Part shown: one piece after another, positions 9,259 to 64,000 of the stretch
How positions within the stretch are numbered: position 1 is the first letter of the stretch
How the letters are laid out: each line of letters begins with the position of its first letter
Source of the DNA: a virus
Lineage: Duplodnaviria > Caudoviricetes
Length of the DNA: 64,000 nt
Virus record (IMG/VR): IMGVR_UViG_3300025889_000070
Reading direction: 5' to 3' (one strand)
Program-made: the position numbers and the translations under genes
Notes under the pieces: model-generated
What the model was told of the DNA's origin: nothing
Databases searched by the model: none
The model's input: the letters and a program-made list of their open reading frames with translations, nothing else

Positions 9259-9865
9259 ACTTATACATGTAACGTGTCATAATACTCTGACGTAAATTGC
9301 AGGGTATAGGATCACATCTATGCCATGCAAATTCATCCACACGCATTAGCCAACTCAAGTTTGGTGTAAATGGTAACCGTTTTATTTCCTGATCATTTTT
9401 GTCAGTAAGGCTTGTTCCCCAATGTTCTCCTCCATCACAGTACACATAAACTTGCCAAGCCAGATTCATAGTATAACCATCGTAGTGATTATGAACACCA
9501 TAGCCAGCATAGTCTTCCCAGAGGCTACTAGTAGTCCAACGATCACCAGCATACTCTAATCCTTGTAAACCATAAACTGCCTGTTGTATCTCTGTATGCT
9601 CCATAATGTTCAAGTAGTATTCCTGCCAAAAATCTATAGTGCCTTGCTCGGGTATGTAGATAGCACGATTTTGGTTAAATTCAGTGGGATTTTTACGAGT
9701 TTTATGGGTACCCATATCAGGCCAATTCTGCTTACAAAGTTCAAATAGCTCAGGATCTAGCGTATCTTCCAGGACAACATGCCAGTAGGGTTCCCATTCA
9801 ACAGTGGCTTGTTGTATTTTTGCAACAGTATATTTTCTATATTTTTCCCAGAAAATGGTAGACAA
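9236..9865 (-). CDS. 2OG-Fe(II) oxygenase-like protein
   Basis: HYD (HxD) followed by distal H (AWH) and R (LRQSI) of the DSBH fold. Confidence 0.65.
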   Translation of the reverse strand: MSTIFWEKYRKYTVAKIQQATVEWEPYWHVVLEDTLDPELFELCKQNWPDMGTHKTRKNPTEFNQNRAIYIPEQGTIDFWQEYYLNIMEHTEIQQAVYGLQGLEYAGDRWTTSSLWEDYAGYGVHNHYDGYTMNLAWQVYVYCDGGEHWGTSLTDKNDQEIKRLPFTPNLSWLMRVDEFAWHRCDPIPCNLRQSIMTRYMYKFISESTQ

Positions 9866-19053: not shown

Positions 19054-20009
19054 TGAATAATTATTTGGTATTGACCCCTGACGGTATGGGTAGTACATAC
19101 TTACAGCGTTTACTTACAACATATCTTAACTTAGCAGGTTATGATTACACTAATACCCATGAGTTACTAAATGGTTTAGAATTAGTTGATGCCGGTCTTA
19201 AAAAAAATTTTAGTTTTGCATATACCCAATCAGTTGAAGAGATAGTAAATTTATTAAAAGCAAATACATCAAATATTGTTAGTAGAGTGGCAGACTACCA
19301 TATTAGGCGTAGACAACAAGAGCGATCCGAAGACTATGTAAGTTTCTATAAACAGTGTAATGAAGTCTTTCCAGTTCAGATCATGTGTATGCGTGATCCT
19401 TTTGAGTATTCTCTTAGTTGGGGAATACGAAACATTACTGGAAAGCAAAATGTTTATAGCATAAGAGAGCGCATTGATACCCACCCAGAGAACATTAACT
19501 ACACTGTAGACCGCCATTTTTTTACACAGAAGTTGAAAAATTATAGTGATTATACATATTGGTGCAAAGACAATTTTAATATTACTAATATTGTAAACTA
19601 CAATAACTTACAGTCTAAGGCAGATGAGGTCTTAAGGAATATTACGGGATTAGACTGTAATTTCAGTGAACTAGCAGGTATCAGTATAGAAGATTATAAC
19701 AAAGTTTTTTATAACGCTAGCTTGTCCTTTCAAACAGGAAATAAAGATCTAATACCAGATAAAAATTTAATAATGAAAGTTTTAAAATTACGTTCCTACC
19801 AAAATAAATTAATTAACGCTCGGCGATTAATAAGTGTCATTCCACATAAAATGAATACACTAGCCGATAAAAGTAAAAAAGTACAAAATTTTAATACGCT
19901 TATAGAAGTATATAATAATTGGGCTGAAAACAGGAACGACGTTGAGACTATTAGTCTGGAACAAATAAAAAAACAAATACATACGGAAAACCAAATTTAT
20001 GAATCTTAA
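19053..20009 (+). CDS. Sulfotransferase-like P-loop protein
   Basis: TPDGMGSTYL (5'-PSB-like) and CMRDPFEYSLS (3'-PB-like). Confidence 0.45.
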   Translation: MNNYLVLTPDGMGSTYLQRLLTTYLNLAGYDYTNTHELLNGLELVDAGLKKNFSFAYTQSVEEIVNLLKANTSNIVSRVADYHIRRRQQERSEDYVSFYKQCNEVFPVQIMCMRDPFEYSLSWGIRNITGKQNVYSIRERIDTHPENINYTVDRHFFTQKLKNYSDYTYWCKDNFNITNIVNYNNLQSKADEVLRNITGLDCNFSELAGISIEDYNKVFYNASLSFQTGNKDLIPDKNLIMKVLKLRSYQNKLINARRLISVIPHKMNTLADKSKKVQNFNTLIEVYNNWAENRNDVETISLEQIKKQIHTENQIYES

Positions 20010-51437: not shown

Positions 51438-54089
51438 ATGTATGTCGACGCTCATTTTGATCGAGACCATGATAGAATTAACATAGTAGAGCGTGTAGGG
51501 GGTAGAAGAGAGTATCGCGAATTCCCTGTTAACTACATATTCTACTACAATGATCCGCGTGGTAAACACAGGACAATCTATGGCAATCCTGTAAGTAGGT
51601 TTAGCACCAGAAATGGAAAAGAGTTCCAAAAAGAACTTAAGATTCATGGCAAGCATGGACTCTGGGAAAGTGATATTAATCCAGTATTCAGATGTTTAGC
51701 GGAAAACTATCTAGGTTCAGATGCTCCAAAACTAAACGTAGCATTTTTTGACATTGAAGTGGACTTTGACCCTGAGCGTGGATATAGCACGCCTGATGAT
51801 CCTTTTAATACTATTACAGCAATTACAGTATACATGGATTGGCTTAACCGACTTGTAACGCTGGCTATTCCACCCAAGAGTATGAGTATACAAACTGCCC
51901 AGGAAACTGTTGCTGACTTTGATAATACATTCTTATTTGAACGTGAAGATAATTTACTAGAAGCATTCTTGGACTTGATTGAAGATGCAGATATCCTCAG
52001 TGGTTGGAACAGTGAGGGTTATGATATTCCCTACACAGTTAACAGGATTACCAGAGTACTCAGCAAGGATGATACCAGACGTTTCTGCTTATGGGGACAG
52101 TATCCAAAGCAGCGGACGTTTGAAAGATTTGGCGCAGAAAATATTACCTTTGATTTAATTGGCAGGCAGCATTTAGATTACATGCAACTGTACCGCAAAT
52201 ACACATATCATGAGATGCACAGTTACAGTTTAGATGCTATCGGTGAATATGAACTCAATGAACGTAAGGTTACCTACGAAGGTACATTGGATCAACTATA
52301 TAATCAAGACTTTTATACATTCATTGACTATAACAGACAAGACACAATGCTGTTACATAAGTTGGATACTAAACTAAAATTTATTGATTTGGCAAACGAA
52401 CTTGCTCATGCTAACACTGTGTTATTACCAACTACCATGGGCGCGGTAGCTGTTACAGAACAGGCTATTATTAACCATGCACACGAACAAGGATTGGTTG
52501 TCCCTAACAAGAAAAAGCCGGACGAAAATCATAATAAAGCAGCAGGTGCTTATGTAGCCAAGCCCAAGGTCGGACTACATGACTGGATTGGCAGTATTGA
52601 CTTAAACAGTCTGTATCCCAGTGTTATCAGAGCACTAAACATGGCTCCTGAAACTATTGTAGGGCAACTACGTCCAGTTATAACTGATAAATCTATCCAA
52701 GCAGTGCTAGCACAAAAAGGCACATTTAGTGATGCCTGGGATGGCGAGTTTGGTAGTAAAGAATATCAAGCAGTCATGAACATGGAAGTGGGCACTGAGA
52801 TCACTATTGACTGGGAGAGTGGCGATAGTGATATATTAAGCGCAGCAGATACATGGCGGTTAATCTTTGACAGCAACAATCCCTGGATACTAAGTGCTAA
52901 CGGTACAATACTAACCTATGAAAAGAAGGGCATTGTTCCCGGGTTGCTGGAACGCTGGTATGCTGAACGTAAAGAACTACAGGCAAAGATGCGTGAAGCA
53001 ACTGGGGAGGAACGTGCTTTCTGGGACAAGCGACAGCTGGTAAAGAAAATTAACTTGAACAGTTTGTATGGCGCCATCCTAAATCCATACTGCCGCTTCT
53101 TTGATCATCGTATTGGCCAAAGCACTACACTGACTGGTAGATGTATTGCTAAACACATGAGCGCACAGGTTAACAAATTACTTACTGACAAATATGATCA
53201 TCAGGGAGATTGTATTATCTATGGTGACACAGACAGTGTGTACTTTAGTGCCTGGCCGGTGATACAAGAACAAGTAGAATCTGGCAAAATGAAATGGGGC
53301 AAAGACGAATGCATTCAACTTTATGACCAACTTGGTGAAGCAGTTAACGAAACATTCGCAGCGTTTATGGAACGTGCTTTTCATTGTCCAAGAAGCTATG
53401 GTGAAATTATTGCTGCGGCTAGAGAAATTGTAGCAACCAAGGGCTTGTATATTACCAAGAAACGCTATGCTGCTCTGGTTATTGACACAGAGGGTTTCCG
53501 CAGTGACATGGACGGCAAGCCAGGCAAAGTTAAAGCCATGGGACTTGATCTCAAGCGCAGTGATACACCCAAGTATATGCAGGACTTTCTCATGGAATTG
53601 CTGATTGATGTGCTTACTGGCAAGCAAGAAGATCATATTGTAGAACGTATTAAAGATTTTAAATACCAATTCAAGGACAAACCAGGCTGGGAAAAAGGCA
53701 CACCCAAGCGTGTTAACAACCTAACAATGTATAGTGCTAGAGAACGTGCAGAAGGTAAAACAAACATGCCGGGACATGTAAGGGCAGCAATGAACTGGAA
53801 CTATCTACGCAAACTTCATGGCGACAACTACAGCCAGCAAATAGTAGATGGCATGAAAACCATTGTGTGTAAACTTAAAGATAATCCACTGGGATATACA
53901 AGTGTAGGCTATCCAACAGATGAGACTACACTTCCTAAATGGTTCAAAGACCTGCCTTTCGATGAGAGTGCCATGGAAGATGCTATCGTAGATCAAAAGA
54001 TAGACAACTTGCTCAGCGAGCTAAACTGGAATCTTAAAGAAAAAACACAGACCAAGAATACATTTGACGATTTGTTTACGTTTGGATAA
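51438..54089 (+). CDS. Family B DNA polymerase (T4 gp43-like)
   Basis: FFDIEVD and WNSEGYD exonuclease motifs; SIDLNSLYPS, KKINLNSLYG, YGDTDS polymerase motifs. Confidence 0.97.
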   Translation: MYVDAHFDRDHDRINIVERVGGRREYREFPVNYIFYYNDPRGKHRTIYGNPVSRFSTRNGKEFQKELKIHGKHGLWESDINPVFRCLAENYLGSDAPKLNVAFFDIEVDFDPERGYSTPDDPFNTITAITVYMDWLNRLVTLAIPPKSMSIQTAQETVADFDNTFLFEREDNLLEAFLDLIEDADILSGWNSEGYDIPYTVNRITRVLSKDDTRRFCLWGQYPKQRTFERFGAENITFDLIGRQHLDYMQLYRKYTYHEMHSYSLDAIGEYELNERKVTYEGTLDQLYNQDFYTFIDYNRQDTMLLHKLDTKLKFIDLANELAHANTVLLPTTMGAVAVTEQAIINHAHEQGLVVPNKKKPDENHNKAAGAYVAKPKVGLHDWIGSIDLNSLYPSVIRALNMAPETIVGQLRPVITDKSIQAVLAQKGTFSDAWDGEFGSKEYQAVMNMEVGTEITIDWESGDSDILSAADTWRLIFDSNNPWILSANGTILTYEKKGIVPGLLERWYAERKELQAKMREATGEERAFWDKRQLVKKINLNSLYGAILNPYCRFFDHRIGQSTTLTGRCIAKHMSAQVNKLLTDKYDHQGDCIIYGDTDSVYFSAWPVIQEQVESGKMKWGKDECIQLYDQLGEAVNETFAAFMERAFHCPRSYGEIIAAAREIVATKGLYITKKRYAALVIDTEGFRSDMDGKPGKVKAMGLDLKRSDTPKYMQDFLMELLIDVLTGKQEDHIVERIKDFKYQFKDKPGWEKGTPKRVNNLTMYSARERAEGKTNMPGHVRAAMNWNYLRKLHGDNYSQQIVDGMKTIVCKLKDNPLGYTSVGYPTDETTLPKWFKDLPFDESAMEDAIVDQKIDNLLSELNWNLKEKTQTKNTFDDLFTFG

Positions 54090-54112: not shown

Positions 54113-55198
54113 ATGAGCAGACTTCATAAAAAGCATAGTTTACTAGATCTTTTTAAAAGAAGACTGAAAAATTTACCAATTAACTTGGACGATCATTTAT
54201 CCCTGGCGAAAAAAACCGTATCAGATCAAGTTGCTGTATGGAAAGATAATACAAAATATCAAGTTCTTTCTCAACGAATTAGTGAATTAGAGATTGCAAA
54301 AAATAACTATAATTTAGCAGTACAAGAGCTTGATGATGACATAAACAAATTACTACAAGAAAAAGAAAAAAGAATAATACAACGCGACTATAACAGAGTA
54401 AACACCTATGAAGCTGAAAATACAGTACTCAGGAATAGCTGGTTAAGCGCAAAAATAAAAGATGTATGTTCAGGAGTTATACAGGCAAACACATTTTGGC
54501 AGTATGCTAGTTTAGAGATTAATCCCGGAGATGGATGTCTTAGTCAGCTTATGAACGCGGCTGATCCACAGTACTGTATTGTAGCAGATAGCAGTGTTGA
54601 AAAACAGGTTAAGAGTAAATTCAACGAATTTTACAGTACTAGGAGATTAAGGTGTTATTCTAGTTTGGATAAGATACCTGATGCTACAGTAGGTTTTGCT
54701 AGTTGTATTAACTTATATGAATATCTACCCTTGGAAAATATCAAAGAAATTAGCACAACAACTTTTACAAAATTAAAGCCTGGTGGAAAGTTTTTAATAA
54801 CATATAATGACTGTGAGCAAAGATACAGTTTAGAGTTGTTAGATAATGAATTTAGGTGTTTGGCTACCAAAACTCTAATATCCAGTTTACATTTTGGTTT
54901 AGGATATGACGTGTTAGACTCTGGTAACACAGATAACGGTACCTGGAGTTATATGGTGCTACAAAAACCTGGAGAACTTACCAGCCAAAAACTAGCCAGT
55001 CCACAAGTTGAATTTGTTCCTAAATTTGTTCCTTATGCGGTTTGGCCCAGCGAACTACGGGAACTAGTGGAGGCAAAGAAAAGTAGGTCATCGGTTCAAT
55101 GGAGGGGTGATGTTATGGCATATTATCAACCTGCGTGGAACAATCTTAAAACCAGTGTACACAAATATATTGATACTTTTTATCACACAAATAGTTGA
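54113..55198 (+). CDS. Coiled-coil plus SAM methyltransferase-like protein
   Basis: SLEINPGDG motif-I variant; KLKPGGKFLI. Confidence 0.55.
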   Translation: MSRLHKKHSLLDLFKRRLKNLPINLDDHLSLAKKTVSDQVAVWKDNTKYQVLSQRISELEIAKNNYNLAVQELDDDINKLLQEKEKRIIQRDYNRVNTYEAENTVLRNSWLSAKIKDVCSGVIQANTFWQYASLEINPGDGCLSQLMNAADPQYCIVADSSVEKQVKSKFNEFYSTRRLRCYSSLDKIPDATVGFASCINLYEYLPLENIKEISTTTFTKLKPGGKFLITYNDCEQRYSLELLDNEFRCLATKTLISSLHFGLGYDVLDSGNTDNGTWSYMVLQKPGELTSQKLASPQVEFVPKFVPYAVWPSELRELVEAKKSRSSVQWRGDVMAYYQPAWNNLKTSVHKYIDTFYHTNS

Positions 55199-55223
55199 CA
55201 CTATAACCACAAACAAGTATAAT
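55195..55223 (+). promoter_or_regulatory. Sigma70-type promoter
   Basis: TTGACA (55195-55200), 17 nt, TATAAT (55218-55223): full consensus. Confidence 0.85.
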
Positions 55224-55252
55224 TAATTAATCATAAAGCAAAGGATTTTTTA

Positions 55253-55984
55253 ATGAAAGATTATCTGTTAGACATTGTTAAGCATACACACAGCCTAGGT
55301 ATTATTGATCTGGTAAAAATTAACGGAGATGATTCCCAGACAAATATTGAAGGCTTGGCAGAAGATCGCAGTGTCATCCTACAAGGTAAATTCCACAACC
55401 CAGTAGCAGAGTTCATGGGCACGTTTGGTATGCCTAATCTAGACAAGCTGGGTGTTATCCTGCGTATTCCCGAATATGCAGAAAATGCTAAGATTACTAT
55501 TAACACACAGGAACGCAATGGCGAAACAGTTCCAGTTGGTGTACACTTTGAAAATGCTGCTGGCGATTTCCAGAACACATACAGATTTATGAGCAGCGAC
55601 ATTGTCAATGATAAACTTAAAAGTGTTACCATGAAAGCAGTTAACTGGGGTGTAGACTTTGAACCCAGCATTGCTGGTATCCAGCGTCTCAAGATGATGA
55701 TCAGTGCTAACAGCGAACAAAGTGTGTTTACTGCTAGAACAACTGGTAAGGATTTAACTTTTGCTTTTGGTGATGCTAGTTCGCATGCCGGTGAGTTTGT
55801 ATTTCAACCAGATGTTGGTGGTAGTCTCAGCAAAGCCTGGAGTTGGCCAGTTGATAGCATTAGCAAGATCCTAAGTCTAAGCGGCGACATTAGTTACAAG
55901 ATTAGTGATGATGGCGTTAGCCAGATTACAGTTGACAGCGGACTTGGTGTTTACAACTATCTACTTCCTGCACAAACAAAGTAA
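55253..55984 (+). CDS. Sliding clamp (T4 gp45-like)
   Basis: 243 aa, near polymerase, C-terminal Y.LPA; clamp loader present in window; similarity not motif-proven. Confidence 0.7.
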   Translation: MKDYLLDIVKHTHSLGIIDLVKINGDDSQTNIEGLAEDRSVILQGKFHNPVAEFMGTFGMPNLDKLGVILRIPEYAENAKITINTQERNGETVPVGVHFENAAGDFQNTYRFMSSDIVNDKLKSVTMKAVNWGVDFEPSIAGIQRLKMMISANSEQSVFTARTTGKDLTFAFGDASSHAGEFVFQPDVGGSLSKAWSWPVDSISKILSLSGDISYKISDDGVSQITVDSGLGVYNYLLPAQTK

Positions 55985-55992
55985 TAAAAAAC

Positions 55993-56835
55993 GTGTATCT
56001 TGACTACTGTGAATTTTATATAACTAATGTTTGTAATTTAACATGCTCTAACTGTAATAGGTTCAACAACTATAATGTAAAAGGTAGAGTAGATTTTAAC
56101 TATGATCTATACAAGCCCTGGGCAGATAAGCTAAATTTTGGTTATATCGGCATCATAGGCGGAGAGCCGTTGCTGCATCCAAACTTAAAAGATTGGATTA
56201 TAGGTATACACAGTCTTTGGCCTAATACTGCCATACAAATAACTACAAATGGAACGAGAATAAATTACGTAAGAGATTTATTCAATACATTTGTAGAGTG
56301 TAATGTAATCATAGAAATTACACTCCATGATACCATTATTGATAAGTTTGTATTTGAAGAGCTGGAAAAGTTTAAAGAAAAAGGCACAAACTGGCAGAAA
56401 AAAGTTATAGATAATACCCAGCTGGACAGGGACAATAAAGAAATGACCATCACTAATGAATATTTAACATGTGATCAAGGGCTAATGATTAAATTTAACC
56501 CTGGCTACTATTTTCAGTCAGTGCAAATTACAGAGAAGCAACATCAATCTAATAGGGTTAAACCTATTATAGGAGATCCAGAACGTGCCCATTATGTTTG
56601 TGGTATAAAAAACTCTCATACGTTTTACGAAGGTAAATTGTATAAATGCGGGTTTATTCCCAGTATAAAAGAATACTTTAAAACATATAATCATAACGAT
56701 GGTTGGGATCCTGTTTACAAATATGAAGCACATGAATTTGATTCTGACTTAACTAGATTGACAAAACCAGAGAATGTTTGCAGTTTATGTCCTAATAGAA
56801 TAAAAACTAGTAAAGTTATAACATCATTTAAATGA
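55993..56835 (+). CDS. Radical SAM protein (GTG start)
   Basis: CNLTCSNC, GGEPLLHP, TNG, C-terminal Cys. Confidence 0.9.
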   Translation: MYLDYCEFYITNVCNLTCSNCNRFNNYNVKGRVDFNYDLYKPWADKLNFGYIGIIGGEPLLHPNLKDWIIGIHSLWPNTAIQITTNGTRINYVRDLFNTFVECNVIIEITLHDTIIDKFVFEELEKFKEKGTNWQKKVIDNTQLDRDNKEMTITNEYLTCDQGLMIKFNPGYYFQSVQITEKQHQSNRVKPIIGDPERAHYVCGIKNSHTFYEGKLYKCGFIPSIKEYFKTYNHNDGWDPVYKYEAHEFDSDLTRLTKPENVCSLCPNRIKTSKVITSFK

Positions 56836-57719
56836 AAATATCGATTCCAAATTTAGATCTGTTCATAGCGCAAACTTGTAATTTGAGTTGTAGTGGTTGT
56901 ATTACTTTCAGTGACAGTAAACTAGTAAAGGGGATTACAAGATACAATCCGGATCATCTAGAATTCTGGAGTCAACACATACAACCAGCATACATTAATA
57001 TGTTTGGTGGTGAACCCTTACTTAATCCTGATCTGGAATTATGGATCGCTGGTTGTAGTGGATACTGGCCTGCTAGCAACCTAACCATACAAACAAATGG
57101 TGTAAAACTTACAGTCGATCATCTAGATTTAATAGACAAATATGGAGTAAGTTTTCGTATTAGCCAACACATAGCAGATTACAAGAGCACTATAACAGAG
57201 TTTATAGATGCTGCTCTAGCAACTGGCAAGTTTCAGCCCTGGACAAATGAAAATGGACCAGTACAAAATGGTTATGGTGAACAACGTGGCTGGATAAATG
57301 AAAGCGGTGCTAGTATACAATGGACAGAAAGTTATAGTGAAACAGTTTGGTGGCCATTTTATCAGGGAACTGCTGAAGATAGTAACCCTAGTTTCAGTTA
57401 TTTTAGCAATGATTTTGCTAGTAGTTGGAATACCTGTGTAGCCAAAACGTTTGTTAACATGTTTGAAGGTAATCTCTATAAATGTCCAGCAGTTGCTGGT
57501 TTGTTAATAAATGGGCATAGCCTAGGCCTAGATAAAAAAAATTACTGGTCGGACTGGTTTAATAACTATAAAAGGTTGAATATAGGCAGTGATAGTGCTA
57601 CAATAACTGAGTGGTTTAATGAACAGCAAGGACCACAAAGTTGTTGTAATATGTGCTCTAGAAATGTAAGCACAAACGTAGAAGTACAAACAGGAGTAAA
57701 TTCAAAGGTTAAACTATGA
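56832..57719 (+). CDS. Radical SAM protein
   Basis: CNLSCSGC, GGEPLLNP, QTNG, C-terminal C..CP..CCNMC. Confidence 0.9.
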   Translation: MKISIPNLDLFIAQTCNLSCSGCITFSDSKLVKGITRYNPDHLEFWSQHIQPAYINMFGGEPLLNPDLELWIAGCSGYWPASNLTIQTNGVKLTVDHLDLIDKYGVSFRISQHIADYKSTITEFIDAALATGKFQPWTNENGPVQNGYGEQRGWINESGASIQWTESYSETVWWPFYQGTAEDSNPSFSYFSNDFASSWNTCVAKTFVNMFEGNLYKCPAVAGLLINGHSLGLDKKNYWSDWFNNYKRLNIGSDSATITEWFNEQQGPQSCCNMCSRNVSTNVEVQTGVNSKVKL

Positions 57720-57943
57720 AAAACAGAGATAAAATTAGAATTTTAGAAGATCAACATCGTAGACTAGATAGTGCTTGTTATGAACTTGAGCGCCTGAGAG
57801 AACTGGATCGTAGTGAGGATATGAAATTTAAACTACAGGACCTTAAGAAGAAAAAACTTGCTGTAAAAGACGAAATTGCTTTCTTAATGAAAAGCGAATT
57901 GGCTGAACAAGAAGCATTTGATTTTGAAAATTATGAAAGATAG
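57716..57943 (+). CDS. DUF465/YdcH-like small coiled-coil protein
   Basis: LEDQHRRLD...LKKKKLAVKDEI. Confidence 0.7.
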   Translation: MKNRDKIRILEDQHRRLDSACYELERLRELDRSEDMKFKLQDLKKKKLAVKDEIAFLMKSELAEQEAFDFENYER

Positions 57944-57948
57944 TTTTC

Positions 57949-58578
57949 ATGACTGAAAGATATTATAAAGTATACTTGTTGGGATATGGAGGCGAACATG
58001 TTATTGGCACTCTTACAAAAGAACAATATGATTTTTGGAAAGATCTAGAAGAAGAAGACATTATTAACCATGCGTTCTGGGATCCATGGGACGAAAGTGA
58101 TGAGAATCCTGTGTTTGACGATACTGATCCAAGATTTTTGGGAAACTGGTATGATCTAGATGACTTAATGCATGAAAATGGCGTATCTGCCGAAAATGCT
58201 CTAATAACTATAGAAGAAGTTGATAGTTCTGATTATGATGCTAAAATATTAGAGACACTAATAGAAAATGTATCCTGGGAAGAGTTTGTAGAAAAATACA
58301 ATATAAGCCTGGGTAAAGATCAGGTTATAGATTTAGAAGAAACCATGGATTATACAGAATATACCTTTCACGGGTTCGCTGCGGAAAAGGGTTGTTTAGG
58401 CGTGTATGTTATTAAAACAGACAGTGAGTTAGACATTAATAAATTAAACTTTTGCTTGACACATGTGCCAAATACGGATACAATATTAGAACTAATCGAT
58501 TATGCTGGTCAGGACGTGGATCGCGAAGGTGGCGATACAATAGGCAAAGGGTACTACGCAAGTGTCCAACAAAATTAG
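57949..58578 (+). CDS. Acidic hypothetical protein
   Basis: 209-aa D/E-rich ORF. Confidence 0.7.
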   Translation: MTERYYKVYLLGYGGEHVIGTLTKEQYDFWKDLEEEDIINHAFWDPWDESDENPVFDDTDPRFLGNWYDLDDLMHENGVSAENALITIEEVDSSDYDAKILETLIENVSWEEFVEKYNISLGKDQVIDLEETMDYTEYTFHGFAAEKGCLGVYVIKTDSELDINKLNFCLTHVPNTDTILELIDYAGQDVDREGGDTIGKGYYASVQQN

Positions 58579-58816
58579 TGACAGTGAGATGCAAGAAGTT
58601 TATGACAGATTTTTTACTCTAGCTATGACTATAGCAGAAGAAAAAGACGATATTTCACTTGTTGCTGGTATCATGCTAGCACAGGCAATGCGTTTATACA
58701 AGACCATGCTTGGTGAACAAGACTTTCTTGATCTATGTGAAACAGTGTATGAAACATCTAAAGAAATAAAACCTTTAGACCTAGAAACCTACGATTTATC
58801 TAAAACTTTTCACTGA
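58562..58816 (+). CDS. Hypothetical protein (GTG start)
   Basis: Overlapping ORF in operon. Confidence 0.6.
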   Translation: MSNKISDSEMQEVYDRFFTLAMTIAEEKDDISLVAGIMLAQAMRLYKTMLGEQDFLDLCETVYETSKEIKPLDLETYDLSKTFH

Positions 58817-58834
58817 AAGGAAAAAATCAAAACT

Positions 58835-59005
58835 ATGTTTGCTGTTAAGGTATTAGTTGATGATACTTGGTTGTACGTTACTAAAACGGATCAGCCTGAT
58901 CCAATATTATTTGATACTGAAGATGAAGCCGAAGATTTTGCTAGTGCGTGGCGGCTATCCGGTGCAGAAGGAAATGTAAAGGTGGTGAACTATGACGGGC
59001 TTTAA
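58835..59005 (+). CDS. Small hypothetical protein (56 aa), not in the ORF track
   Basis: AAAGG RBS; MFAVKVLVDDTWLYV...VVNYDGL*. Confidence 0.65.
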   Translation: MFAVKVLVDDTWLYVTKTDQPDPILFDTEDEAEDFASAWRLSGAEGNVKVVNYDGL

Positions 59006-59165
59006 AAACAAACAAGACTACACTGACTGGGCTTACTATCAGATGAAAAAGTACGGTATTCGTATGCCAGAAACATATTCAGCTGATGAATTGGAATATC
59101 TTAATCCCAGTGTTCCCAGAGATTTTATTGATAACCTTGTAAAGCAGAGAGACAACAATGGCTGA
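58992..59165 (+). CDS. Small hypothetical protein (57 aa), not in the ORF track
   Basis: GGTG RBS; MTGFKNKQDYTDWAYYQMKKYG...DNNG*. Confidence 0.6.
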   Translation: MTGFKNKQDYTDWAYYQMKKYGIRMPETYSADELEYLNPSVPRDFIDNLVKQRDNNG

Positions 59166-59616
59166 AACCAGAGAAAGTCATGACGAATATATCCTACGTA
59201 AGATGCGTGAAGAAAGTCTAAAAGATCGCTTACGCAGAGCGGACAAAATGATCTGGGTAACCTTCCAGAAAGAAGGTATCCACAAGTATCCTGCTGCTCT
59301 CAACGATCCTAAACTAGCAACTGGCGATGAATATGATGTAAGTTTCCTGGGATATCCGCACAGGCACATATTTCATTTCCGTGTATGGATCGAAGTATTC
59401 CATGATGATCGCGATATTGAATTTATACAATTCAAGCGTTGGTTGGAAAACTTATATAAAGACGGAACATTAGAATTAGATTTTAAATCTTGCGAAATGA
59501 TCAGCGATGATTTGTACTTACAAATCCTGGAACGCTATCCAGGTCGTAATGTTCAAATTGAGGTAAGCGAAGACGGTGAGAACGGTTCACAAACTTTTTA
59601 TAACAAGGATATTTAA
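59158..59616 (+). CDS. queD: QueD/6-pyruvoyl-tetrahydropterin synthase-like T-fold protein
   Basis: HRH metal-binding pair, D..EF..FK, SCEM.., V.EDGEN; tgt/dpdA-like gene 3.8 kb downstream. Confidence 0.65.
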   Translation: MAETRESHDEYILRKMREESLKDRLRRADKMIWVTFQKEGIHKYPAALNDPKLATGDEYDVSFLGYPHRHIFHFRVWIEVFHDDRDIEFIQFKRWLENLYKDGTLELDFKSCEMISDDLYLQILERYPGRNVQIEVSEDGENGSQTFYNKDI

Positions 59617-59617
59617 A

Positions 59618-59830
59618 ATGAAACAAGAAGTAACACGAGTATTTGACGACCTAGACGATTTCCTACGTTTTTGTGCAACGTTTGGTCACCCCTATAACGA
59701 GGCTGATCTATATAACGACGAAAGCGAAGTATATCAGCAGTATCGCATGCTAAAAGATGGCAAGCGTATCAGCAACAACTGGATGCGAGATGCTAAAATT
59801 CATGGACACCGAATTTTTGGAAACAGATAA
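59618..59830 (+). CDS. Hypothetical protein
   Basis: AAGGA RBS; start ATG 59618. Confidence 0.7.
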   Translation: MKQEVTRVFDDLDDFLRFCATFGHPYNEADLYNDESEVYQQYRMLKDGKRISNNWMRDAKIHGHRIFGNR

Positions 59831-60171
59831 TGTCTCCGGAACAAGCAAAATTTCCCTATAGTGTTGTTGTTAAAAGCGAACATTATACACAACGAGCAAA
59901 TCATCTACCTGTTCAAGGGGGAGCATTAAACGCTGGTTACACCGTCGCGCCGGCGCGACGGCCGGCACCAGTGGATGCCCTTTGTATGATCAGTAATTTA
60001 CTTGGCAAACACGGTCTACAGTACAATGTAGACTGGTGGTGGGAAGGTTTTGGTAGTGGAGATTATAATCCAAACACTGGGCATACTAGTAGGATACAAT
60101 TAAGGTTTAAAAAAGAAGAACACAAATTACTTCTCCATCTTAGCCCAGACATGGATCACAGGTTATGTTAA
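59830..60171 (+). CDS. Hypothetical protein
   Basis: TAATG-coupled ORF. Confidence 0.6.
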   Translation: MSPEQAKFPYSVVVKSEHYTQRANHLPVQGGALNAGYTVAPARRPAPVDALCMISNLLGKHGLQYNVDWWWEGFGSGDYNPNTGHTSRIQLRFKKEEHKLLLHLSPDMDHRLC

Positions 60172-60992
60172 CAAATGTATTACTAATAGGTGGTGCTGGA
60201 TTTATAGGCGGGCATCTTAAAAATAAACTAGAGTCTAATGGTACCACTGTTGATGTCATTGACAAAAAACATGGAAAAAATATACTGGACGAATATGCTC
60301 TAGTAGCAGACAGAGAATATAGTCATGTAGTATTTTTAGCAGCAGAAGCAAATCTTAGAGCAGTAAAACGAAATCCTGTTGATGCTATCAAAACAATGAC
60401 TGTAGGTTTAATGAACTGTTTGAAATATTATTCAGACAGTCATTTTACATATATTAGTAGTAGTATGGTTTATGGCAACTGGGCTGGAGACAGTGTAAGT
60501 GAAAATGATGCTCGAGCTCCTATAGACTTGTATGGCCAACTTAAACTGGCTGGAGAAGGCATTGTTAAAGAATTACACAGCAACTATACCATTATAAGGC
60601 CCACGGCAGTTTATGGTCCTGGTGATGATCCTACTAGAGTACTTCCACACTTTATAAACCTAGCAAGACAAAATCAAATACTTACAGTAAAAGGGTCTAA
60701 CAACATGCTAGATTTTACGCATGTTGACGATATTATACAAGGAATTATACTGGGTATGAATAGACCTAAATACAGTACAGGCGTTTACAACATAAGTTAC
60801 GGTAACGCAGTACCCTTAGAAACTGTAGCTAAATACATTACAAAGTGCTTGGGCACCGGATCAGTTAAAGTAGATCCGCTGGACTTAGAATACCCAAAAC
60901 GTGGCAGCATGAATATCACAAAAGCAAGAACTGAACTGGGATACAAGCCTACAACGCACGTATTTGATGGTATAAATGAACTATTATCATAA
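60165..60992 (+). CDS. NAD-dependent NDP-sugar epimerase/dehydratase (extended SDR)
   Basis: GGAGFIG, SSSMVYG, YGQLK (YxxxK), R...VYGPG, DFTHVDD. Confidence 0.92.
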   Translation: MLTNVLLIGGAGFIGGHLKNKLESNGTTVDVIDKKHGKNILDEYALVADREYSHVVFLAAEANLRAVKRNPVDAIKTMTVGLMNCLKYYSDSHFTYISSSMVYGNWAGDSVSENDARAPIDLYGQLKLAGEGIVKELHSNYTIIRPTAVYGPGDDPTRVLPHFINLARQNQILTVKGSNNMLDFTHVDDIIQGIILGMNRPKYSTGVYNISYGNAVPLETVAKYITKCLGTGSVKVDPLDLEYPKRGSMNITKARTELGYKPTTHVFDGINELLS

Positions 60993-61001
60993 GGATATTT
61001 A

Positions 61002-62225
61002 ATGTATATTGGTTTTATAGGGTTAGGTAAACTTGGCATGCCCTGTGCTGAAGCAATGGCACAAAAATACGACGTAACAGGATACGATATACAGCCAAAA
61101 ACCAGCAACTTAGTAGACATAGTATCTAACTTAGAGCAAGCAGTTACAAACAAAGACCTAGTATTTGTTGCTATTCAAACACCACATCAGCAGGAATACG
61201 ATGGTAGCCAACCGTGCATGGACCTTGAACCCAAGGACTTTGATTACAGTCAAGTAAAGCAGTGCTTACAAGAAATAAACAAATATGCAAATAAGCACAC
61301 GTTAGTAGTTCTTATTAGCACAGTGTTGCCGGGTACGGTTCGCAGAGAACTAGCACCACTAATCACCCAGGCTCGTTTTATATACAACCCATACCTAATA
61401 GCAATGGGTAGTGTTAGTTGGGACATGATTAATCCAGAAATGGTTATCGTTGGTACAAAAAACGGCAGTTATACAGACGATGCTACATTAATTATTGACT
61501 TTTACAAGGAGTTAATGGAGAACAATCCACGTTATGTTGTAGGAACCTGGGAAGAAGCAGAAAGCATTAAGATTTTTTATAATACATTTATTAGTGCTAA
61601 ACTAAGTCTTGTAAACATGATCCAGGATGTTAGTATGAAATTGGGTAATATGAATGTTGATGTTGTAACGGATGCACTATCAAGAAGCACACAACGTATC
61701 ATGGGTCCACAATATATGAAAGCTGGCATGGGAGATGGCGGTCCTTGTCATCCCAGAGACAATATTGCTCTACGTTTTATGGTACAAGAACTTGGGTTAG
61801 GCTATGACTTGTTTGATGCTATTATGCAAGCCAGAGAAATACAAGCTGAAAACGTTGCTTTTAAACTAGTAGATTTAGCTAATGAATATAATATGCAGAT
61901 TGTCATACACGGTAAAGCATACAAGCCACAAGTTCCATATTTAGAAGGCAGCTATAGTTTGCTAATTGGACACTACTGTAAAAAACTAGGGTTTGATCCT
62001 GTATATGTTGATCCAGAAACCGGTGATGCATTTGAACCTACAGAGCCTTGTGTTTTTTTACTAGCGCACAGCGCCAACACTACTTATAAGTATACTAACA
62101 ATCAACCAGTTGATACTAATACAATGTACTGTTTAGTGCCTGACGGAAGTGTTGTTGTTGACATGTGGAGAAACTATACCAATAACAAGTGTACAGTTAT
62201 TCATTATGGAAATACACGTGACTAA
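61002..62225 (+). CDS. ugd: UDP-glucose/GDP-mannose dehydrogenase family
   Basis: GLGKLG, STV.PGT, YNP, E..KIFYN, GGPCHPRD, G.AYKP. Confidence 0.9.
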   Translation: MYIGFIGLGKLGMPCAEAMAQKYDVTGYDIQPKTSNLVDIVSNLEQAVTNKDLVFVAIQTPHQQEYDGSQPCMDLEPKDFDYSQVKQCLQEINKYANKHTLVVLISTVLPGTVRRELAPLITQARFIYNPYLIAMGSVSWDMINPEMVIVGTKNGSYTDDATLIIDFYKELMENNPRYVVGTWEEAESIKIFYNTFISAKLSLVNMIQDVSMKLGNMNVDVVTDALSRSTQRIMGPQYMKAGMGDGGPCHPRDNIALRFMVQELGLGYDLFDAIMQAREIQAENVAFKLVDLANEYNMQIVIHGKAYKPQVPYLEGSYSLLIGHYCKKLGFDPVYVDPETGDAFEPTEPCVFLLAHSANTTYKYTNNQPVDTNTMYCLVPDGSVVVDMWRNYTNNKCTVIHYGNTRD

Positions 62226-62733
62226 TTGGCACATAGACAAAATAGAATCTTTTTGGGACAATGATCATCAATTCCTAAACTACGAATCAGAAAATTTTAA
62301 CAATCCCGACGATATTTTAAATTGGCAAGGAAAAGGATATAAACCACCATTTGTTGGTGAACTCTGCGACATGCGTAAACCACAGGCTTGGTACACAGAT
62401 AATGTCGTGGAATACTTTAAAAACAAGTATAGCATAGAAAACGTTGGTACAAGTTTTTACAGAATGTCCACAGGCATTATACTTCCTAAACACCGAGACA
62501 CATACAAAAAATACAGAGAATTGTTTGGGGTTAGTGTACACCAAATCCAACGTATTATAGTTTTTTTAGAAAACTGGCGCAGCGGACATTATTTTGAAAT
62601 TGAAGGCACACCAATTGTAGATTGGCAAGCCGGAGATTATGTTTGGTGGAGAGGCGATGCAGAACACATGGCAGCTAACCTAGGAACGGAATATAGATAT
62701 ACGCTACAGATAACAGGACATGATGGATTATAA
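62206..62733 (+). CDS. Asp/Asn beta-hydroxylase-like 2OG-Fe(II) oxygenase
   Basis: PKHRD (HxD), W..G...EH..AN, R..LQ; start ATG 62206. Confidence 0.7.
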   Translation: MEIHVTNWHIDKIESFWDNDHQFLNYESENFNNPDDILNWQGKGYKPPFVGELCDMRKPQAWYTDNVVEYFKNKYSIENVGTSFYRMSTGIILPKHRDTYKKYRELFGVSVHQIQRIIVFLENWRSGHYFEIEGTPIVDWQAGDYVWWRGDAEHMAANLGTEYRYTLQITGHDGL

Positions 62734-63325
62734 GGTTCTTGAAGATTTTGAAAACTTATTAAGTAAGTATACTGGTGCTCCTTATGTTGTTCTTACTGAC
62801 AGTTGTACTCATGCTGTAGAACTTTGCATACGTCAGCAAAAGTGGCAGGGCCCGGTTATACTTCCTCCAAAAACATATATTAGCATACCCATGACCATGC
62901 ATAAACTTGGTTTACAAGTTTACTGGGATCACGAATATAACTGGAAACACCAGTATAGAATTGCGCCCACAAATATCTGGGATAGTGCTCGAGCATTTGA
63001 TAAAAATATGTACAAGCCAGGTGCTTGGCAGTGTTTAAGTTTCGGCTGGGACAAAAGGTTAGCCATTGGCCATGGTGGGGCTATATTGTTAGACAAAAAA
63101 AGCGATTACATTTCGCTTAAATGTATGGCATATGACGGCAGATTTCTAGATATAAAACCCTGGCAAGAACAATCTAATTGGCAGTTAGGTTTTCATTATA
63201 ATATGAGACTGGAAGACGCTGCTAAAGGTATAGAACTATTATCTCAACCTGATAAATTGCCAATGATGTATACGCAGGTAAAAGAGTATCCTGACGTGAG
63301 CAAAATTAAAATTAAACTTGACTAA
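62720..63325 (+). CDS. Short DegT/DnrJ/EryC1/StrS-like PLP-dependent aminotransferase
   Basis: DSCTHA, DSA, SFGWDKRL..G.GG (PLP Lys), G..YNM. Confidence 0.8.
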   Translation: MMDYKVLEDFENLLSKYTGAPYVVLTDSCTHAVELCIRQQKWQGPVILPPKTYISIPMTMHKLGLQVYWDHEYNWKHQYRIAPTNIWDSARAFDKNMYKPGAWQCLSFGWDKRLAIGHGGAILLDKKSDYISLKCMAYDGRFLDIKPWQEQSNWQLGFHYNMRLEDAAKGIELLSQPDKLPMMYTQVKEYPDVSKIKIKLD

Positions 63326-63346
63326 TCGTCTAAATAATCTTATCAT
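63318..63346 (+). promoter_or_regulatory. Sigma70-type promoter
   Basis: TTGACT (63318-63323), 17 nt, TATCAT (63341-63346). Confidence 0.6.
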
Positions 63347-63371
63347 TAATAATAAAAAAAGGTACAACTAT

Positions 63372-64000
63372 ATGGCAGTTAGAATAAATCTAAGTGAAAA
63401 AAATCATGACTATGCAGTGTTCACACCTGCGCTTAGTGGCTTTTATCAGAGTTATGTAAGCAAGCAACAGCAAGATCCCAATCATGTAGAACAATCACGT
63501 ATACCAGCAAAGTTTGAAAATGGTATTGAAGGCTTGAACTTCTTAAATCCTGAGCAGGGATACTTTACCTACAATCATGTTCTTTACAGTGCTGGACATG
63601 CTGAACTAGACATGGCTAAAGCAGTGGATCGTGAAAGTATGATCCATAAGCGTGATAGAAACAATACTGTGCTTATTGGTGACAGTGGCGGGTTCCAGAT
63701 TAGTAAAGGTGTGTGGCAGGGTAACTGGCTAGAGCCTGAAGGGCAATGTGCTGACACAGACAAAAAGCGTGGTGTAGTTCTCAACTGGTTAGAAAATACA
63801 GCAGACTACAGCATGGTACTGGATATCCCCACAAACGGTTTGAACTTCATAGACGAAACAACAGGCAAACCTAGATGTGGTTTGAATGACTATGCTGAGT
63901 TCCGTGATGCTACTCGAGCCAACAATAACTATTTCTTTAAACATAGACAGGGCAAAACAAAGTTCCTAAACGTGCTACAGGGCAGTACATATGAACAAGC
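63372..64000 (+). CDS. tRNA-guanine transglycosylase/DpdA-like protein, partial (runs off window; not in ORF track)
   Basis: Open from ATG 63372 (MAVRINLSEKNHD...) to the end; IGDSGGFQI TGT signature, MVLDIP, FLNVLQG. Confidence 0.85.
   Translation, partial: MAVRINLSEKNHDYAVFTPALSGFYQSYVSKQQQDPNHVEQSRIPAKFENGIEGLNFLNPEQGYFTYNHVLYSAGHAELDMAKAVDRESMIHKRDRNNTVLIGDSGGFQISKGVWQGNWLEPEGQCADTDKKRGVVLNWLENTADYSMVLDIPTNGLNFIDETTGKPRCGLNDYAEFRDATRANNNYFFKHRQGKTKFLNVLQGSTYEQ

Follow-up and report, generated by a model that had tools for sequence, protein, structure and literature searches.

Cellulophaga phage phiST carries FolE, QueD, and QueE without QueC, together with DpdL and a predicted inserter of the TGT superfamily (DpdA3), encoded beside its DNA polymerase, and the product has been shown to be plain 2'-deoxy-7-deazaguanosine (dDG) (Cui, Hutinet et al., NAR 2023; PMC10516641). 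DpdL and DpdA of Acidovorax phage ACP17 were reconstituted in E. coli and formed no dDG; no glycosyltransferase is named in the main text of that paper, where "glycosyl" has no occurrence (PMC10516641). The DNA of PA5oct, a Pseudomonas jumbo phage (Wroclawvirus), is reported as G-modified: it withstands several restriction enzymes whose sites include G, and nucleases that recognize modified G target it (PMC12191111).

Sugars on modified bases are known from other systems. For glucosyl-hydroxymethylcytosine of T4, base J, and glycosylated 5-hydroxycytosine (PMC13326640), a phage glycosyltransferase decorates an already modified base, with nuclease protection, and some glycosylated-pyrimidine phages bring their own sugar-nucleotide enzymes. 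There, however, the sugar sits on a hydroxyl of the pyrimidine substituent, whereas the base considered here would be a purine analog without a hydroxyl, and the glycosyltransferase described below belongs to a separate GT4-like family. In huimycin and dapiramicin biosynthesis, FolE, QueD, and QueE build the deazaguanine core and HuiG, a GT-B/GT4-type glycosyltransferase, forms an N-glycoside at the 2-amino group, so sugar-on-7-deazaguanine chemistry exists; that route is nevertheless an actinomycete small-molecule pathway that uses QueC (preQ0) and has no transglycosylase, DpdL, or DNA target (PMC7439116). Galactosyl- and mannosyl-queuosine of animal tRNA, the analogy drawn in the original prediction for this DNA, also arise by adding sugar to a 7-deazaguanine derivative already in nucleic acid (by QTGAL and QTMAN), but the acceptor is a hydroxyl of the queuosine cyclopentenediol, and a search of 15 members from the phage family described below gave no QTMAN_N match at E 0.1 or better.

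The locus described here resembles that of phiST in its QueC-less gene set, its DpdL, and its position beside a DNA polymerase gene, but has the glycosyltransferase and NDP-sugar genes that phiST lacks. We lean toward the view that the operon replaces guanine of the phage DNA by a glycosylated 7-deazaguanine.

The operon and its replication context

The window, a stretch of 64,000 nucleotides, comes from a large uncultured marine phage, a T4-related jumbo phage with the operon in its replication module, and the genes at 59158-64000 form the upstream half of an operon of ~15 kb. All genes named in the original prediction are present on the plus strand, tightly packed or overlapping. The replication module that contains the operon starts with a family B DNA polymerase gene (PolB; 51438-54089; Pfam DNA_pol_B, E 2e-35, plus an exonuclease domain), which in 79 of 83 related loci is found 5' of the transglycosylase gene. 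Between the two, in 80 of the 83, is a gp45/PCNA-like sliding clamp gene (243 aa; 55253-55984), identified from atlas clusters of PCNA and sliding clamps, some with gp45-slide_C; a perfect TTGACA-17-TATAAT match (55195-55223) lies near its start. PolB and clamp genes flank the deazaguanine module on one side and a 5'-3' exonuclease gene on the other. The methyltransferase-like gene predicted alongside them was also found (361 aa; 54113-55198), with a weak class-I SAM match (Methyltransf_23, E 6.6e-4, below cut-off); its closest atlas clusters are viral methyltransferase families, and homologs occur in 11 of the 83 loci.

A pair of radical SAM genes (280 and 295 aa; 55993-57719; Radical_SAM, E ~1e-7) is present where predicted, just upstream, but has no part in the pathway. 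Their best NCBIfam matches are HxsC, MoaA, viperin, and PapB, and identity with QueE was rejected, QueE models scoring E 1e-4 to 6e-3 and the real QueE being encoded elsewhere on the contig. With no homolog among the 83 related loci, the pair is a lineage-specific insertion.

Genes for 7-deazaguanine synthesis and the TGT-fold enzyme

The gene at 59158-59616 (152 aa) had been called queD-like, which was right in kind; it is however assigned to DpdL, the predicted 7-carboxy-7-deazaguanine decarboxylase, because it is homologous to named DpdL proteins (61% identity to that of ACP17; 32% to that of phiST, pairwise E 1e-16) and its L64-G-Y-P-H68-R-H70-I-F72 fits their LxxxHRHxF signature (Cui et al., 2023; PMC10516641). 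The motif is kept in 71 of 76 DpdL homologs; the protein matches phrog_17812 (E 3e-35) and has no Pfam PTPS match. Identity with QueD was rejected on the homology and the signature, and a real QueD is encoded downstream on the same contig. The 7-deazaguanine genes do bracket an NDP-sugar pathway, as predicted, but the bracket consists of DpdL and DpdA rather than QueD and DpdA.

Past the window end the same contig encodes a glycosyltransferase, then FolE (E 1.6e-39), a phosphomannomutase, a purine phosphoribosyltransferase, QueD (phrog_2389, 2e-40), and QueE (phrog_2076, 1e-50), the last two ~10 kb beyond the end. FolE, QueE, and a glycosyltransferase were accordingly located beyond 64000, where the original prediction had suggested looking for them, but QueC, sought with them, was found neither in 78 kb of this phage nor in about 90 related loci. 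FolE, QueD, and QueE would convert GTP to 7-carboxy-7-deazaguanine and DpdL would take off the carboxyl to give 7-deazaguanine; without QueC, no preQ0 would be made. The phosphoribosyltransferase (NCBIfam xanthine PRTase, E 3e-9) may salvage guanine released by exchange.

The TGT-superfamily transglycosylase gene (DpdA-like, 487 aa) starts at 63372, its first 209 codons reaching 64000, and ends at ~64835 on the contig; the full-length sequence was taken from L001:10653-12116. As predicted from its DSGGFQ, it encodes a TGT-like protein: GDSGGFQ occupies residues 103-109, and the model (pLDDT 86) has the TGT fold, with Z 20.3 to Thermotoga maritima TGT. A wide structure search gave Z 19.1 for archaeal TGT, 17.5 for bacterial TGT, and 16.1 for DpdA 7ui4, everything unrelated scoring 11 or less. 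D104, D151, and D294 are invariant across the family and presumably correspond to the Asp trio that TGT and DpdA keep unchanged; D294 falls on the FDC motif when aligned with E. coli Tgt. In DpdA, D95 and D256 are required for guanine exchange in DNA (PMC10164549). The enzyme would swap guanine in DNA for 7-deazaguanine.

The original prediction had called for placing the protein among DpdA types or tRNA TGT. By sequence it falls outside tRNA TGT: hhalign gives 64% with ACP17 DpdA, 47% with phiST DpdA3, 14% with E. coli Tgt, and 0.2% with CAjan DpdA1. All four scores are weak, which sets the transglycosylase in a clade of its own, and no curated TGT model scores it above its cut-off. These low scores, and the weak resemblance to the tested DpdA types (DpdA1, phiST DpdA3, ACP17 DpdA), count against the reading we favor. 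In Vibrio phage 2.275.O a member of this clade is encoded with QueC, QueF, and FolE, an independent deazaguanine context.

The cultured relatives differ in the inserter and in the sugar genes. PA5oct encodes homologs of the transglycosylase (gp316, 43% identity), glycosyltransferase (gp317, 36%), and DpdL (gp318, 53%) side by side, with QueE nearby, and ACP17 lines up QueD, FolE, DpdA, glycosyltransferase, DpdL, and QueE, but both modules are without NDP-sugar genes, and the DpdA of ACP17 belongs to a different subtype (26% identity over 167 aa). The phiST DpdA3 is marginally similar and shorter, at 259 aa.

The glycosyltransferase and the putative sugar-tailoring genes

The GT-B glycosyltransferase gene lies directly past the transglycosylase gene and overlaps each neighbor by 4 nt. 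The protein carries E259-x7-E267 as a motif, and Glycos_transf_1 is matched by 13 of 15 members of the family. DpdL and this glycosyltransferase occur together in each of the 42 related loci whose flank is long enough, and among 50,697 phage records all 17 full-length glycosyltransferase matches are in DpdL-bearing phages, 0-3 kb from DpdL; among cultured phages it is confined to DpdL carriers (PA5oct group, ACP17, Phosso, and others). The linkage holds across ~40% sequence divergence and several gene orders, and in Phosso the glycosyltransferase gene is still beside DpdL with the transglycosylase gene 170 kb off. The enzyme would place a sugar on the inserted base.

Between DpdL and the transglycosylase, the predicted epimerase/dehydratase, UDP-sugar dehydrogenase, hydroxylase, and short DegT genes are all there. 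The first encodes an extended-SDR NDP-sugar epimerase/dehydratase/reductase (275 aa; 60165-60992; Pfam Epimerase 4e-28, GDP_Man_Dehyd 2e-19, RmlD 1.5e-17; phrog_540 2e-47), with all NCBIfam equivalogs far under their cut-offs, and the second an NDP-sugar 6-dehydrogenase of the UDP-glucose/GDP-mannose dehydrogenase family (407 aa; 61002-62225; UDPG_MGDP_dh_N and central domains; phrog_9148 5e-100), scoring 144.6 bits with TIGR03026 against a cut-off of 189.8. The third is a probable 2OG-Fe(II) oxygenase (175 aa; 62206-62733), identified from a weak Asp_Arg_Hydrox match (E 0.0099) and an H96-x-D98...H154...R164 pattern invariant in 24 homologs; no sequence match was found in the PDB. Its gene also adjoins that of mini-DegT in loci L091, L036, and L087.

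Mini-DegT (201 aa; 62720-63325) is a PLP-domain-only relative of the sugar aminotransferases, with D88 and S107-F108-x3-K112 conserved. Its family profile matched perosamine synthetase, ArnB, and others in two blocks (E 1e-19), its model (pLDDT 96.9) fits the large domain of GDP-perosamine synthase (TMq ~0.7), and the family comprises 657 representative clusters, most of ~200 aa. Two small genes between DpdL and the SDR (70 and 113 aa; 59618-60171) have no match in Pfam, PHROGs, or NCBIfam; the first has homologs in 4 of the 83 loci and the second in none.

NDP-sugar genes vary among relatives, at least one being present in 16 of 42 loci, and their enrichment inside the module over outside (22 versus 13, p 0.06) is weak and not significant. 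The proposal that the interleaved sugar enzymes could hypermodify the base is supported in part, by the linkage of the glycosyltransferase to the pathway, while the NDP-sugar genes of the window are accessory. In closer relatives the genes at this site differ: L091 has a dehydrogenase, oxygenase-like, mini-DegT, and DAHP synthase-family (KdsA-like) gene, L092 a mannose-1-phosphate guanylyltransferase-like gene, and L093 a GDP-mannose dehydratase-type SDR. In the present lineage the dehydrogenase, SDR, oxygenase-like protein, and mini-DegT would tailor the donor sugar, possibly joined by the downstream phosphomannomutase.

Competing accounts of the product

7-Deazaguanine has no obvious hydroxyl as sugar acceptor, which counts against glycosylation. 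Since phiST has DpdL but no glycosyltransferase and makes plain dDG, the pathway is complete without glycosylation, full replacement being reached there with FolE, QueD, QueE, DpdL, and DpdA3 alone. Together with the variable, not significantly enriched NDP-sugar genes, this favors plain dDG here as well, the glycosyltransferase and sugar genes being merely co-expressed and serving some other modified base or a glycan of the virion or host surface. We regard this as unlikely, the glycosyltransferase family being confined to DpdL-bearing phages (17/17 cultured; 42/42 loci) through sequence divergence and gene rearrangement, including that in Phosso; no thymidylate synthase or dCMP hydroxymethylase homolog was found in the window or downstream.

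It is less probable that the glycosyltransferase acts on free 7-deazaguanine, the TGT-fold enzyme then inserting the sugared base or the product being a small molecule outside DNA. HuiG does put GlcNAc on the 2-amino group of the 7-deazaguanine base, within a FolE/QueD/QueE/QueC cluster (PMC7439116), and the glycosyltransferase gene of ACP17 sits between the DpdL and DpdA genes whose products yielded no dDG in E. coli. The guanine pocket of a TGT-type enzyme would, however, have to accommodate a bulky N2 substituent. Moreover, the known DNA glycosylations, those of T4 and base J, act on the polymer.

Entry at the nucleotide level, with a xanthine/guanine-type phosphoribosyltransferase making a nucleotide for the polymerase and the TGT-fold protein in another role, seems improbable. 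In tubercidin biosynthesis a phosphoribosyltransferase takes 7-carboxy-7-deazaguanine, and 27 of 83 loci encode the phage enzyme within the module, with a HIT-family gene as its neighbor in L092; but most loci lack it, guanine salvage explains it equally, the three catalytic or recognition Asp of the TGT-fold protein are invariant, and every virus known to have 7-deazaguanine in DNA encodes a DpdA-type enzyme. That the TGT-fold enzyme modifies phage or host tRNA is very doubtful: tRNA transglycosylases are its top structural matches (Z 17.5-20.3, above DpdA at 16.1) and large phages of this type carry tRNA genes, but the Z gaps are small with few DpdA entries in the PDB, profile comparison puts the family nearer phage DpdA types than E. 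coli Tgt, PA5oct DNA behaves as G-modified, and the genes lie in a DNA replication module.

Glycosylation of the inserted 7-deazaguanine, the account we prefer, predicts a sugar-bearing purine in DNA, of which the literature searched holds no report. We read the operon as a QueC-less 7-deazaguanine DNA pathway extended by glycosylation, in which the sugar would differ between phage lineages.

DpdL and the 7-deazaguanine genes

Between 51438 and 64000 every gene lies on the + strand, tightly packed against or overlapping its neighbors. First comes a family B DNA polymerase (51438-54089), and after it a protein with weak methyltransferase likeness (54113-55198), a sliding clamp (55253-55984), two radical SAM genes (55993-57719), several small genes of no assigned function and then a 152-aa product (59158-59616) identified by homology and motif as DpdL. 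The original prediction had described the next genes as a sugar pathway, and Pfam bears this out for an epimerase/dehydratase-type SDR (60165-60992), an NDP-sugar dehydrogenase (61002-62225) and a short DegT-like protein (mini-DegT; 62720-63325), while the hydroxylase match of the oxygenase-like protein encoded between the last two (62206-62733) is marginal. The transglycosylase gene, assigned by fold, starts at 63372 and runs past the window end, its full-length product comprising 487 aa. Megablast of 55000-64000 against phage records returned zero matches.

The full-length transglycosylase and the genes downstream of it were read from the same contig, recovered from public metagenomes. The transglycosylase gene is followed in order by a glycosyltransferase, FolE, a eukaryote-type phosphomannomutase, a large subtilase, a xanthine/guanine-type phosphoribosyltransferase, a second 2OG oxygenase-like gene, a real QueD, a real QueE and a 5'-3' exonuclease. 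Of the genes expected beyond 64000, a glycosyltransferase, FolE and QueE were thus found, together with QueD, but QueC was not: neither the SGGxDS motif nor a tblastn match with CAjan QueC was detected in ~78 kb of the ~220-kb genome or in ~90 related loci. The phosphoribosyltransferase (L006:9468-10001 on the continuing contig, ~9.5 kb past the window end), found in the module of 27 of 83 loci, could recycle guanine released by base exchange to GTP, the pathway precursor.

The gene at 59158 had been read as queD-like, and the kinship is right in kind; a true QueD sits downstream, which rules out that identity for this gene, and its product is instead DpdL, a predicted 7-carboxy-7-deazaguanine decarboxylase. 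In tblastn against phage records, of which 28 matched, it is 61% identical to ACP17 DpdL (E 7e-41) and 32% identical to the phiST protein, and pairwise BLASTP with phiST gp040 (CGPG_00067, the phiST DpdL) gave an E value of 1e-16. The phiST and ACP17 proteins were named DpdL, with this predicted activity, by Cui, Hutinet et al., who defined the family by the replacement of the QueD motif CxxxHGH with LxxxHRHxF (PMC10516641). The corresponding signature here is L64-G-Y-P-H-R-H-I-F72, and 71 of the 76 homologues in related loci keep LxxxHRHxF. The protein otherwise matches phrog_17812, a family without assigned function. It has no Pfam PTPS match, BLASTP against the phage's own QueD returned nothing, and hhalign against four QueD sequences gave 14%, which is no useful signal; its T-fold kinship therefore rests on the published HHpred match of phiST DpdL to the QueD-like T-fold at 99.9% (PMC10516641). 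Decarboxylase activity has to date not been reconstituted for any DpdL, those of phiST and ACP17 included (PMC10516641). With FolE, QueD, QueE and a DpdA-type gene on the same contig, the core of the module is a member of the known DpdL-type pathway to 2'-deoxy-7-deazaguanosine (dDG).

The two radical SAM genes singled out upstream are present but unrelated to this pathway; profile comparison rules them out as QueE, and none of 83 relatives carries them. The stretch from clamp to DpdL that contains them (55993-58578) also holds a DUF465 gene, likewise with homologues in 0 of 83 related loci, and a 209-aa gene found in 2 of 83, and the group has the look of an insertion particular to this lineage. 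A perfect sigma-70 consensus (TTGACA, 17 nt, TATAAT) lies at 55195-55223, 30 nt 5' of the clamp gene; in a promoter scan, promoter-like sites in the region showed no excess over shuffles.

A separate clade of TGT-fold transglycosylases

Neither of the genes that bracket the sugar genes, DpdL on the 5' side and the transglycosylase on the 3' side, matches a Pfam model, a PHROG with function or a PADLOC model, and both were therefore placed by other evidence. For the transglycosylase, nothing was found in Pfam (no match at E 1 or better), PHROGs or PADLOC, PDB sequence searches with the protein or the family profile were also empty, and TIGR00449 scored 18.9 bits against a cut-off of 47.6. Such a score shows divergence rather than exclusion, since the Pfam TGT model run over the PA5oct, ACP17 and phiST records misses even the published phiST DpdA3 and ACP17 DpdA. 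The family itself is large, with more than 7,400 matches on contigs of up to 338 kb, none carrying a Pfam domain.

Placement of the protein comes solely from its fold and the sub-threshold NCBIfam match. In a model built from 34 sequences (pLDDT 86), the top 50 Foldseek hits were all tRNA-guanine transglycosylases (E 3e-9), and VIA-align gave a Z of 20.3 over 304 residues with an rmsd of 4.3. A wide search independent of Foldseek ranked archaeal TGT (Z 19.1), QTRT2 (18.4) and bacterial TGT (17.5) ahead of the DNA preQ0 insertase DpdA 7ui4 (16.1) and Cap10 (14.0), with generic TIM barrels at 11 or below. D104 (in GDSGGFQ), D151 and D294 (in DCASP) are invariant in the 34 sequences and are taken to match the three aspartates conserved without exception in TGTs and DpdA; D294 lines up with the E. 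coli Tgt FDC motif, and D104 and D151 are matched by motif and order only. In TGT and DpdA enzymes these residues act as general acid/base, in base recognition and as nucleophile, and two of them are needed for guanine exchange in DNA (PMC10164549). Fold, motif and aspartates together uphold the TGT/DpdA-like assignment made for the gene from 63372.

Structure alone would not decide between DNA and tRNA as substrate. In profile comparisons the protein scored 64% with ACP17 DpdA (E 6.5e-5), 47% with phiST DpdA3, 14% with E. coli Tgt and 0.2% with CAjan DpdA1 (hhalign), the comparison covering these four references with one sequence for each. All of these scores are weak, and the protein is therefore treated as a separate subfamily. 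The comparison proposed at the outset, with DpdA on one side and tRNA-acting TGT on the other, thus leans toward phage DpdA but only weakly: judged from sequence, the transglycosylase would form a clade of its own, nearer to ACP17 DpdA and phiST DpdA3 than to E. coli Tgt or CAjan DpdA1.

An independent tie of this clade to deazaguanine comes from Vibrio phage 2.275.O (L096; record 330216-337242), in which a 596-aa member lies amid QueF, QueC and FolE. It is followed there by a weakly amidoligase-like gene, QueF, a YhhQ-like transporter, QueC, a glutamine amidotransferase-like gene and FolE, an arrangement that corresponds to a preQ-type pathway plus one further, unstudied enzyme. The weak amidoligase likeness of the gene next to the transglycosylase ruled it out as a glycosyltransferase.

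The glycosyltransferase and the sugar genes

The glycosyltransferase is a 358-aa GT-B protein whose gene overlaps its neighbor by 4 nt at both ends. Its own Glycos_transf_1 match is below the cut-off (E 0.0097), and 13 of 15 family members match this model, the best at 1.3e-6; the closest atlas clusters are GT1/GT4 families. In the E-x7-E motif, E259 is nearly invariant and E267, eight residues away, is invariant. None of the 15 members matches the QTMAN_N domain of the queuosine mannosyltransferase QTMAN/GTDC1 at E 0.1 or better, and no thymidylate synthase-type gene, as for a hydroxymethyl-pyrimidine target, was detected in the window or the downstream stretch.

The linkage comparison took in PA5oct, three closer metagenomic loci and 80 IMG/VR loci in which the transglycosylase is 40-49% identical. 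Most commonly the genes run in the order PolB, clamp, transglycosylase, DpdL, glycosyltransferase, FolE, (phosphoribosyltransferase), QueE and exonuclease; in the window phage DpdL has shifted to a position 5' of the transglycosylase gene, with six genes between the two. DpdL and one glycosyltransferase of the family are present in all 42 loci that extend at least 3 kb upstream and at least 5 kb downstream. A second, distinct glycosyltransferase family was considered in relatives and ruled out, both queries landing on one gene in 17 of 17 loci. Across 50,697 phage records, all 17 full-length glycosyltransferase matches lie in DpdL-bearing phages, 0-3 kb from DpdL, the phages concerned being the PA5oct group, ACP17, Phosso, BCSR5, X1 and BUDD. 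In Phosso the glycosyltransferase adjoins DpdL with the transglycosylase gene 170 kb away, and it is missing from 2.275.O, the one preQ-type relative examined, which together indicate that the glycosyltransferase follows DpdL and not the transglycosylase. Eleven DpdL-bearing records have no glycosyltransferase, among them phiST, whose DNA contains proven dDG (PMC10516641), so that glycosylation would be an add-on to a complete pathway.

In ACP17 (L089; record 83532-87028) the glycosyltransferase gene lies between DpdA and DpdL. A metagenomic relative with a transglycosylase 68% identical (L092) has an Acb1 (anti-CBASS) gene between DpdL and the transglycosylase gene (9277-9771) and a Gad2 gene after the exonuclease gene (18929-19654), indicating that counter-defence genes are mixed into the same module. 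In Phosso (L097:6011-6544; record 149815-150348), a 177-aa gene annotated as "glycosylase", with no Pfam match, sits between clamp and DpdL, at the site occupied by the transglycosylase in relatives.

Homologues of the sugar genes are uncommon among more distant relatives: they were found among 83 loci for the SDR in 4, the dehydrogenase in 2, the oxygenase-like gene in 3, mini-DegT in 10 and the phosphomannomutase in 5. Each of the three closer relatives has a sugar-nucleotide gene at the same site, different in each: a dehydrogenase, oxygenase-like gene, mini-DegT and DAHP synthase-family (KdsA-like) gene in L091 (transglycosylase 84% identical), a mannose-1-phosphate guanylyltransferase-like gene in L092 and a GDP-mannose dehydratase-type SDR in L093 (62%). 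At least one sugar-nucleotide gene is present in 16 of 42 loci, and sugar genes number 22 inside the module against 13 in the flanks (p 0.06), a weak enrichment among loci that are non-independent. Of the predicted tie between sugar genes and the deazaguanine pathway in relatives, the part concerning the glycosyltransferase stands in every one of the 42 loci, but the part concerning NDP-sugar genes does not extend beyond this minority. The pattern fits, short of proof, a variable donor-sugar cassette supplying a constant transferase. The proposal that sugar enzymes hypermodify the base accordingly fares unevenly, with a strong link for the glycosyltransferase and a moderate one for the window's own sugar genes.

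The genes present do not fix the sugar, since they are compatible with UDP-glucuronate-type as well as GDP-mannose-type routes. Pfam finds the N-terminal and central domains of the NDP-sugar dehydrogenase, with the C-terminal domain not reported, and its TIGR03026 score is below the cut-off; its substrate may be of either the UDP-glucose or the GDP-mannose type. The oxygenase-like protein has invariant H96, D98, H154 and R164, candidates for the HxD...H iron triad and the basic 2-oxoglutarate residue of 2OG-Fe(II) oxygenases, with a Pfam match below the cut-off and no PDB sequence match for its family. Mini-DegT is 201 aa long, compared with ~360-400 aa for two-domain DegT/DnrJ/EryC1 proteins, and matches chain residues 39-107 and 177-253 only. 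S107, F108, K112 and D88 are kept in at least 90% of 38 sequences. They comprise the PLP lysine K112 within SFxxxK, which lines up with the perosamine synthetase SF..K block, and the cofactor-binding aspartate D88, and the model is a confident fold corresponding to the large domain of sugar aminotransferases (TM-score 0.66-0.73 by query and 0.32-0.41 by target). Proteins of this short form, ~200 aa long, make up a genuine family in their own right, widespread and stand-alone, with 657 representative clusters and sometimes fused with further domains to reach up to 866 aa. Mini-DegT is without the C-terminal domain and internal segment of sugar aminotransferases, and its substrate may therefore differ from a standard NDP-keto-sugar. 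The oxygenase-like and mini-DegT genes, at 62206-62733 and 62720-63325 here, are paired in four phage lineages (the window phage, L091, and two further relatives, L036 and L087), which suggests a two-step oxidise-then-aminate cassette.

A proposed glycosylated deazaguanine in DNA

In the pathway we propose, FolE, QueD and QueE would convert GTP to 7-carboxy-7-deazaguanine, DpdL would decarboxylate it, the TGT-fold enzyme would swap the resulting base into DNA and glycosylation would be the final step. DNA is favored as the target because the genes sit in a replication module, because a DpdA-type gene is present in every virus known to carry deazaguanine in DNA, and because the DNA of PA5oct behaves as modified at G, resisting restriction enzymes whose sites contain G and being sensed by modified-G-specific nucleases (PMC12191111).

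The chief chemical obstacle is the lack of a hydroxyl on 7-deazaguanine, and the oxygenase-like genes are conserved in too few loci to be its general source. The sugar might be attached as an N-glycoside at the 2-amino group, for which HuiG of huimycin sets a precedent, acting on the free base (PMC7439116). A speculative option is a C-glycoside at the electron-rich pyrrole carbon, which would explain why the transferase accompanies only DpdL: the glycosyltransferase tracks the enzyme that frees C7 and is missing from the preQ-type 2.275.O, so that the sugar may even sit at this carbon. Glycosylated 7-deazaguanine would replace guanine in the DNA of a large, mostly uncultured jumbo-phage clade that includes PA5oct, ACP17 and Phosso, with the sugar differing by lineage, and no genome would have been shown before to contain a purine analogue with a sugar; we advance this tentatively, as a reading somewhat more apt to fail than to hold. 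In the window phage the interleaved genes may produce a uronic sugar or an amino sugar for this purpose.

Against the known pathway core, the transglycosylase would represent a new subfamily, and the built-in glycosyltransferase and sugar cassette are the new element. To our knowledge, eight 7-deazaguanine derivatives occur in viral DNA, none with a sugar, and sugars on DNA bases are known only from pyrimidines. A glycosylated deazaguanine in DNA is reported nowhere in the literature searched. The main text of Cui et al. mentions no glycosyltransferase (0 occurrences of "glycosyl"), though the ACP17 gene sits between the two genes that were expressed (PMC10516641). Co-expression of ACP17 DpdL and DpdA in E. 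coli yielded no dDG (PMC10516641), and the absent glycosyltransferase is one possible reason.

If the proposal is correct, glycosylated deazaguanine would constitute a new class of DNA hypermodification, could account for that failed expression, and could reveal how G is modified in PA5oct, a phage employed in therapy-related work. The thousands of transglycosylase family members in metagenomes would make the modification common in aquatic jumbo phages, with consequences for evasion of restriction and CRISPR, for modified-DNA-sensing defence nucleases and for the bias of sequencing against genomes of this kind.
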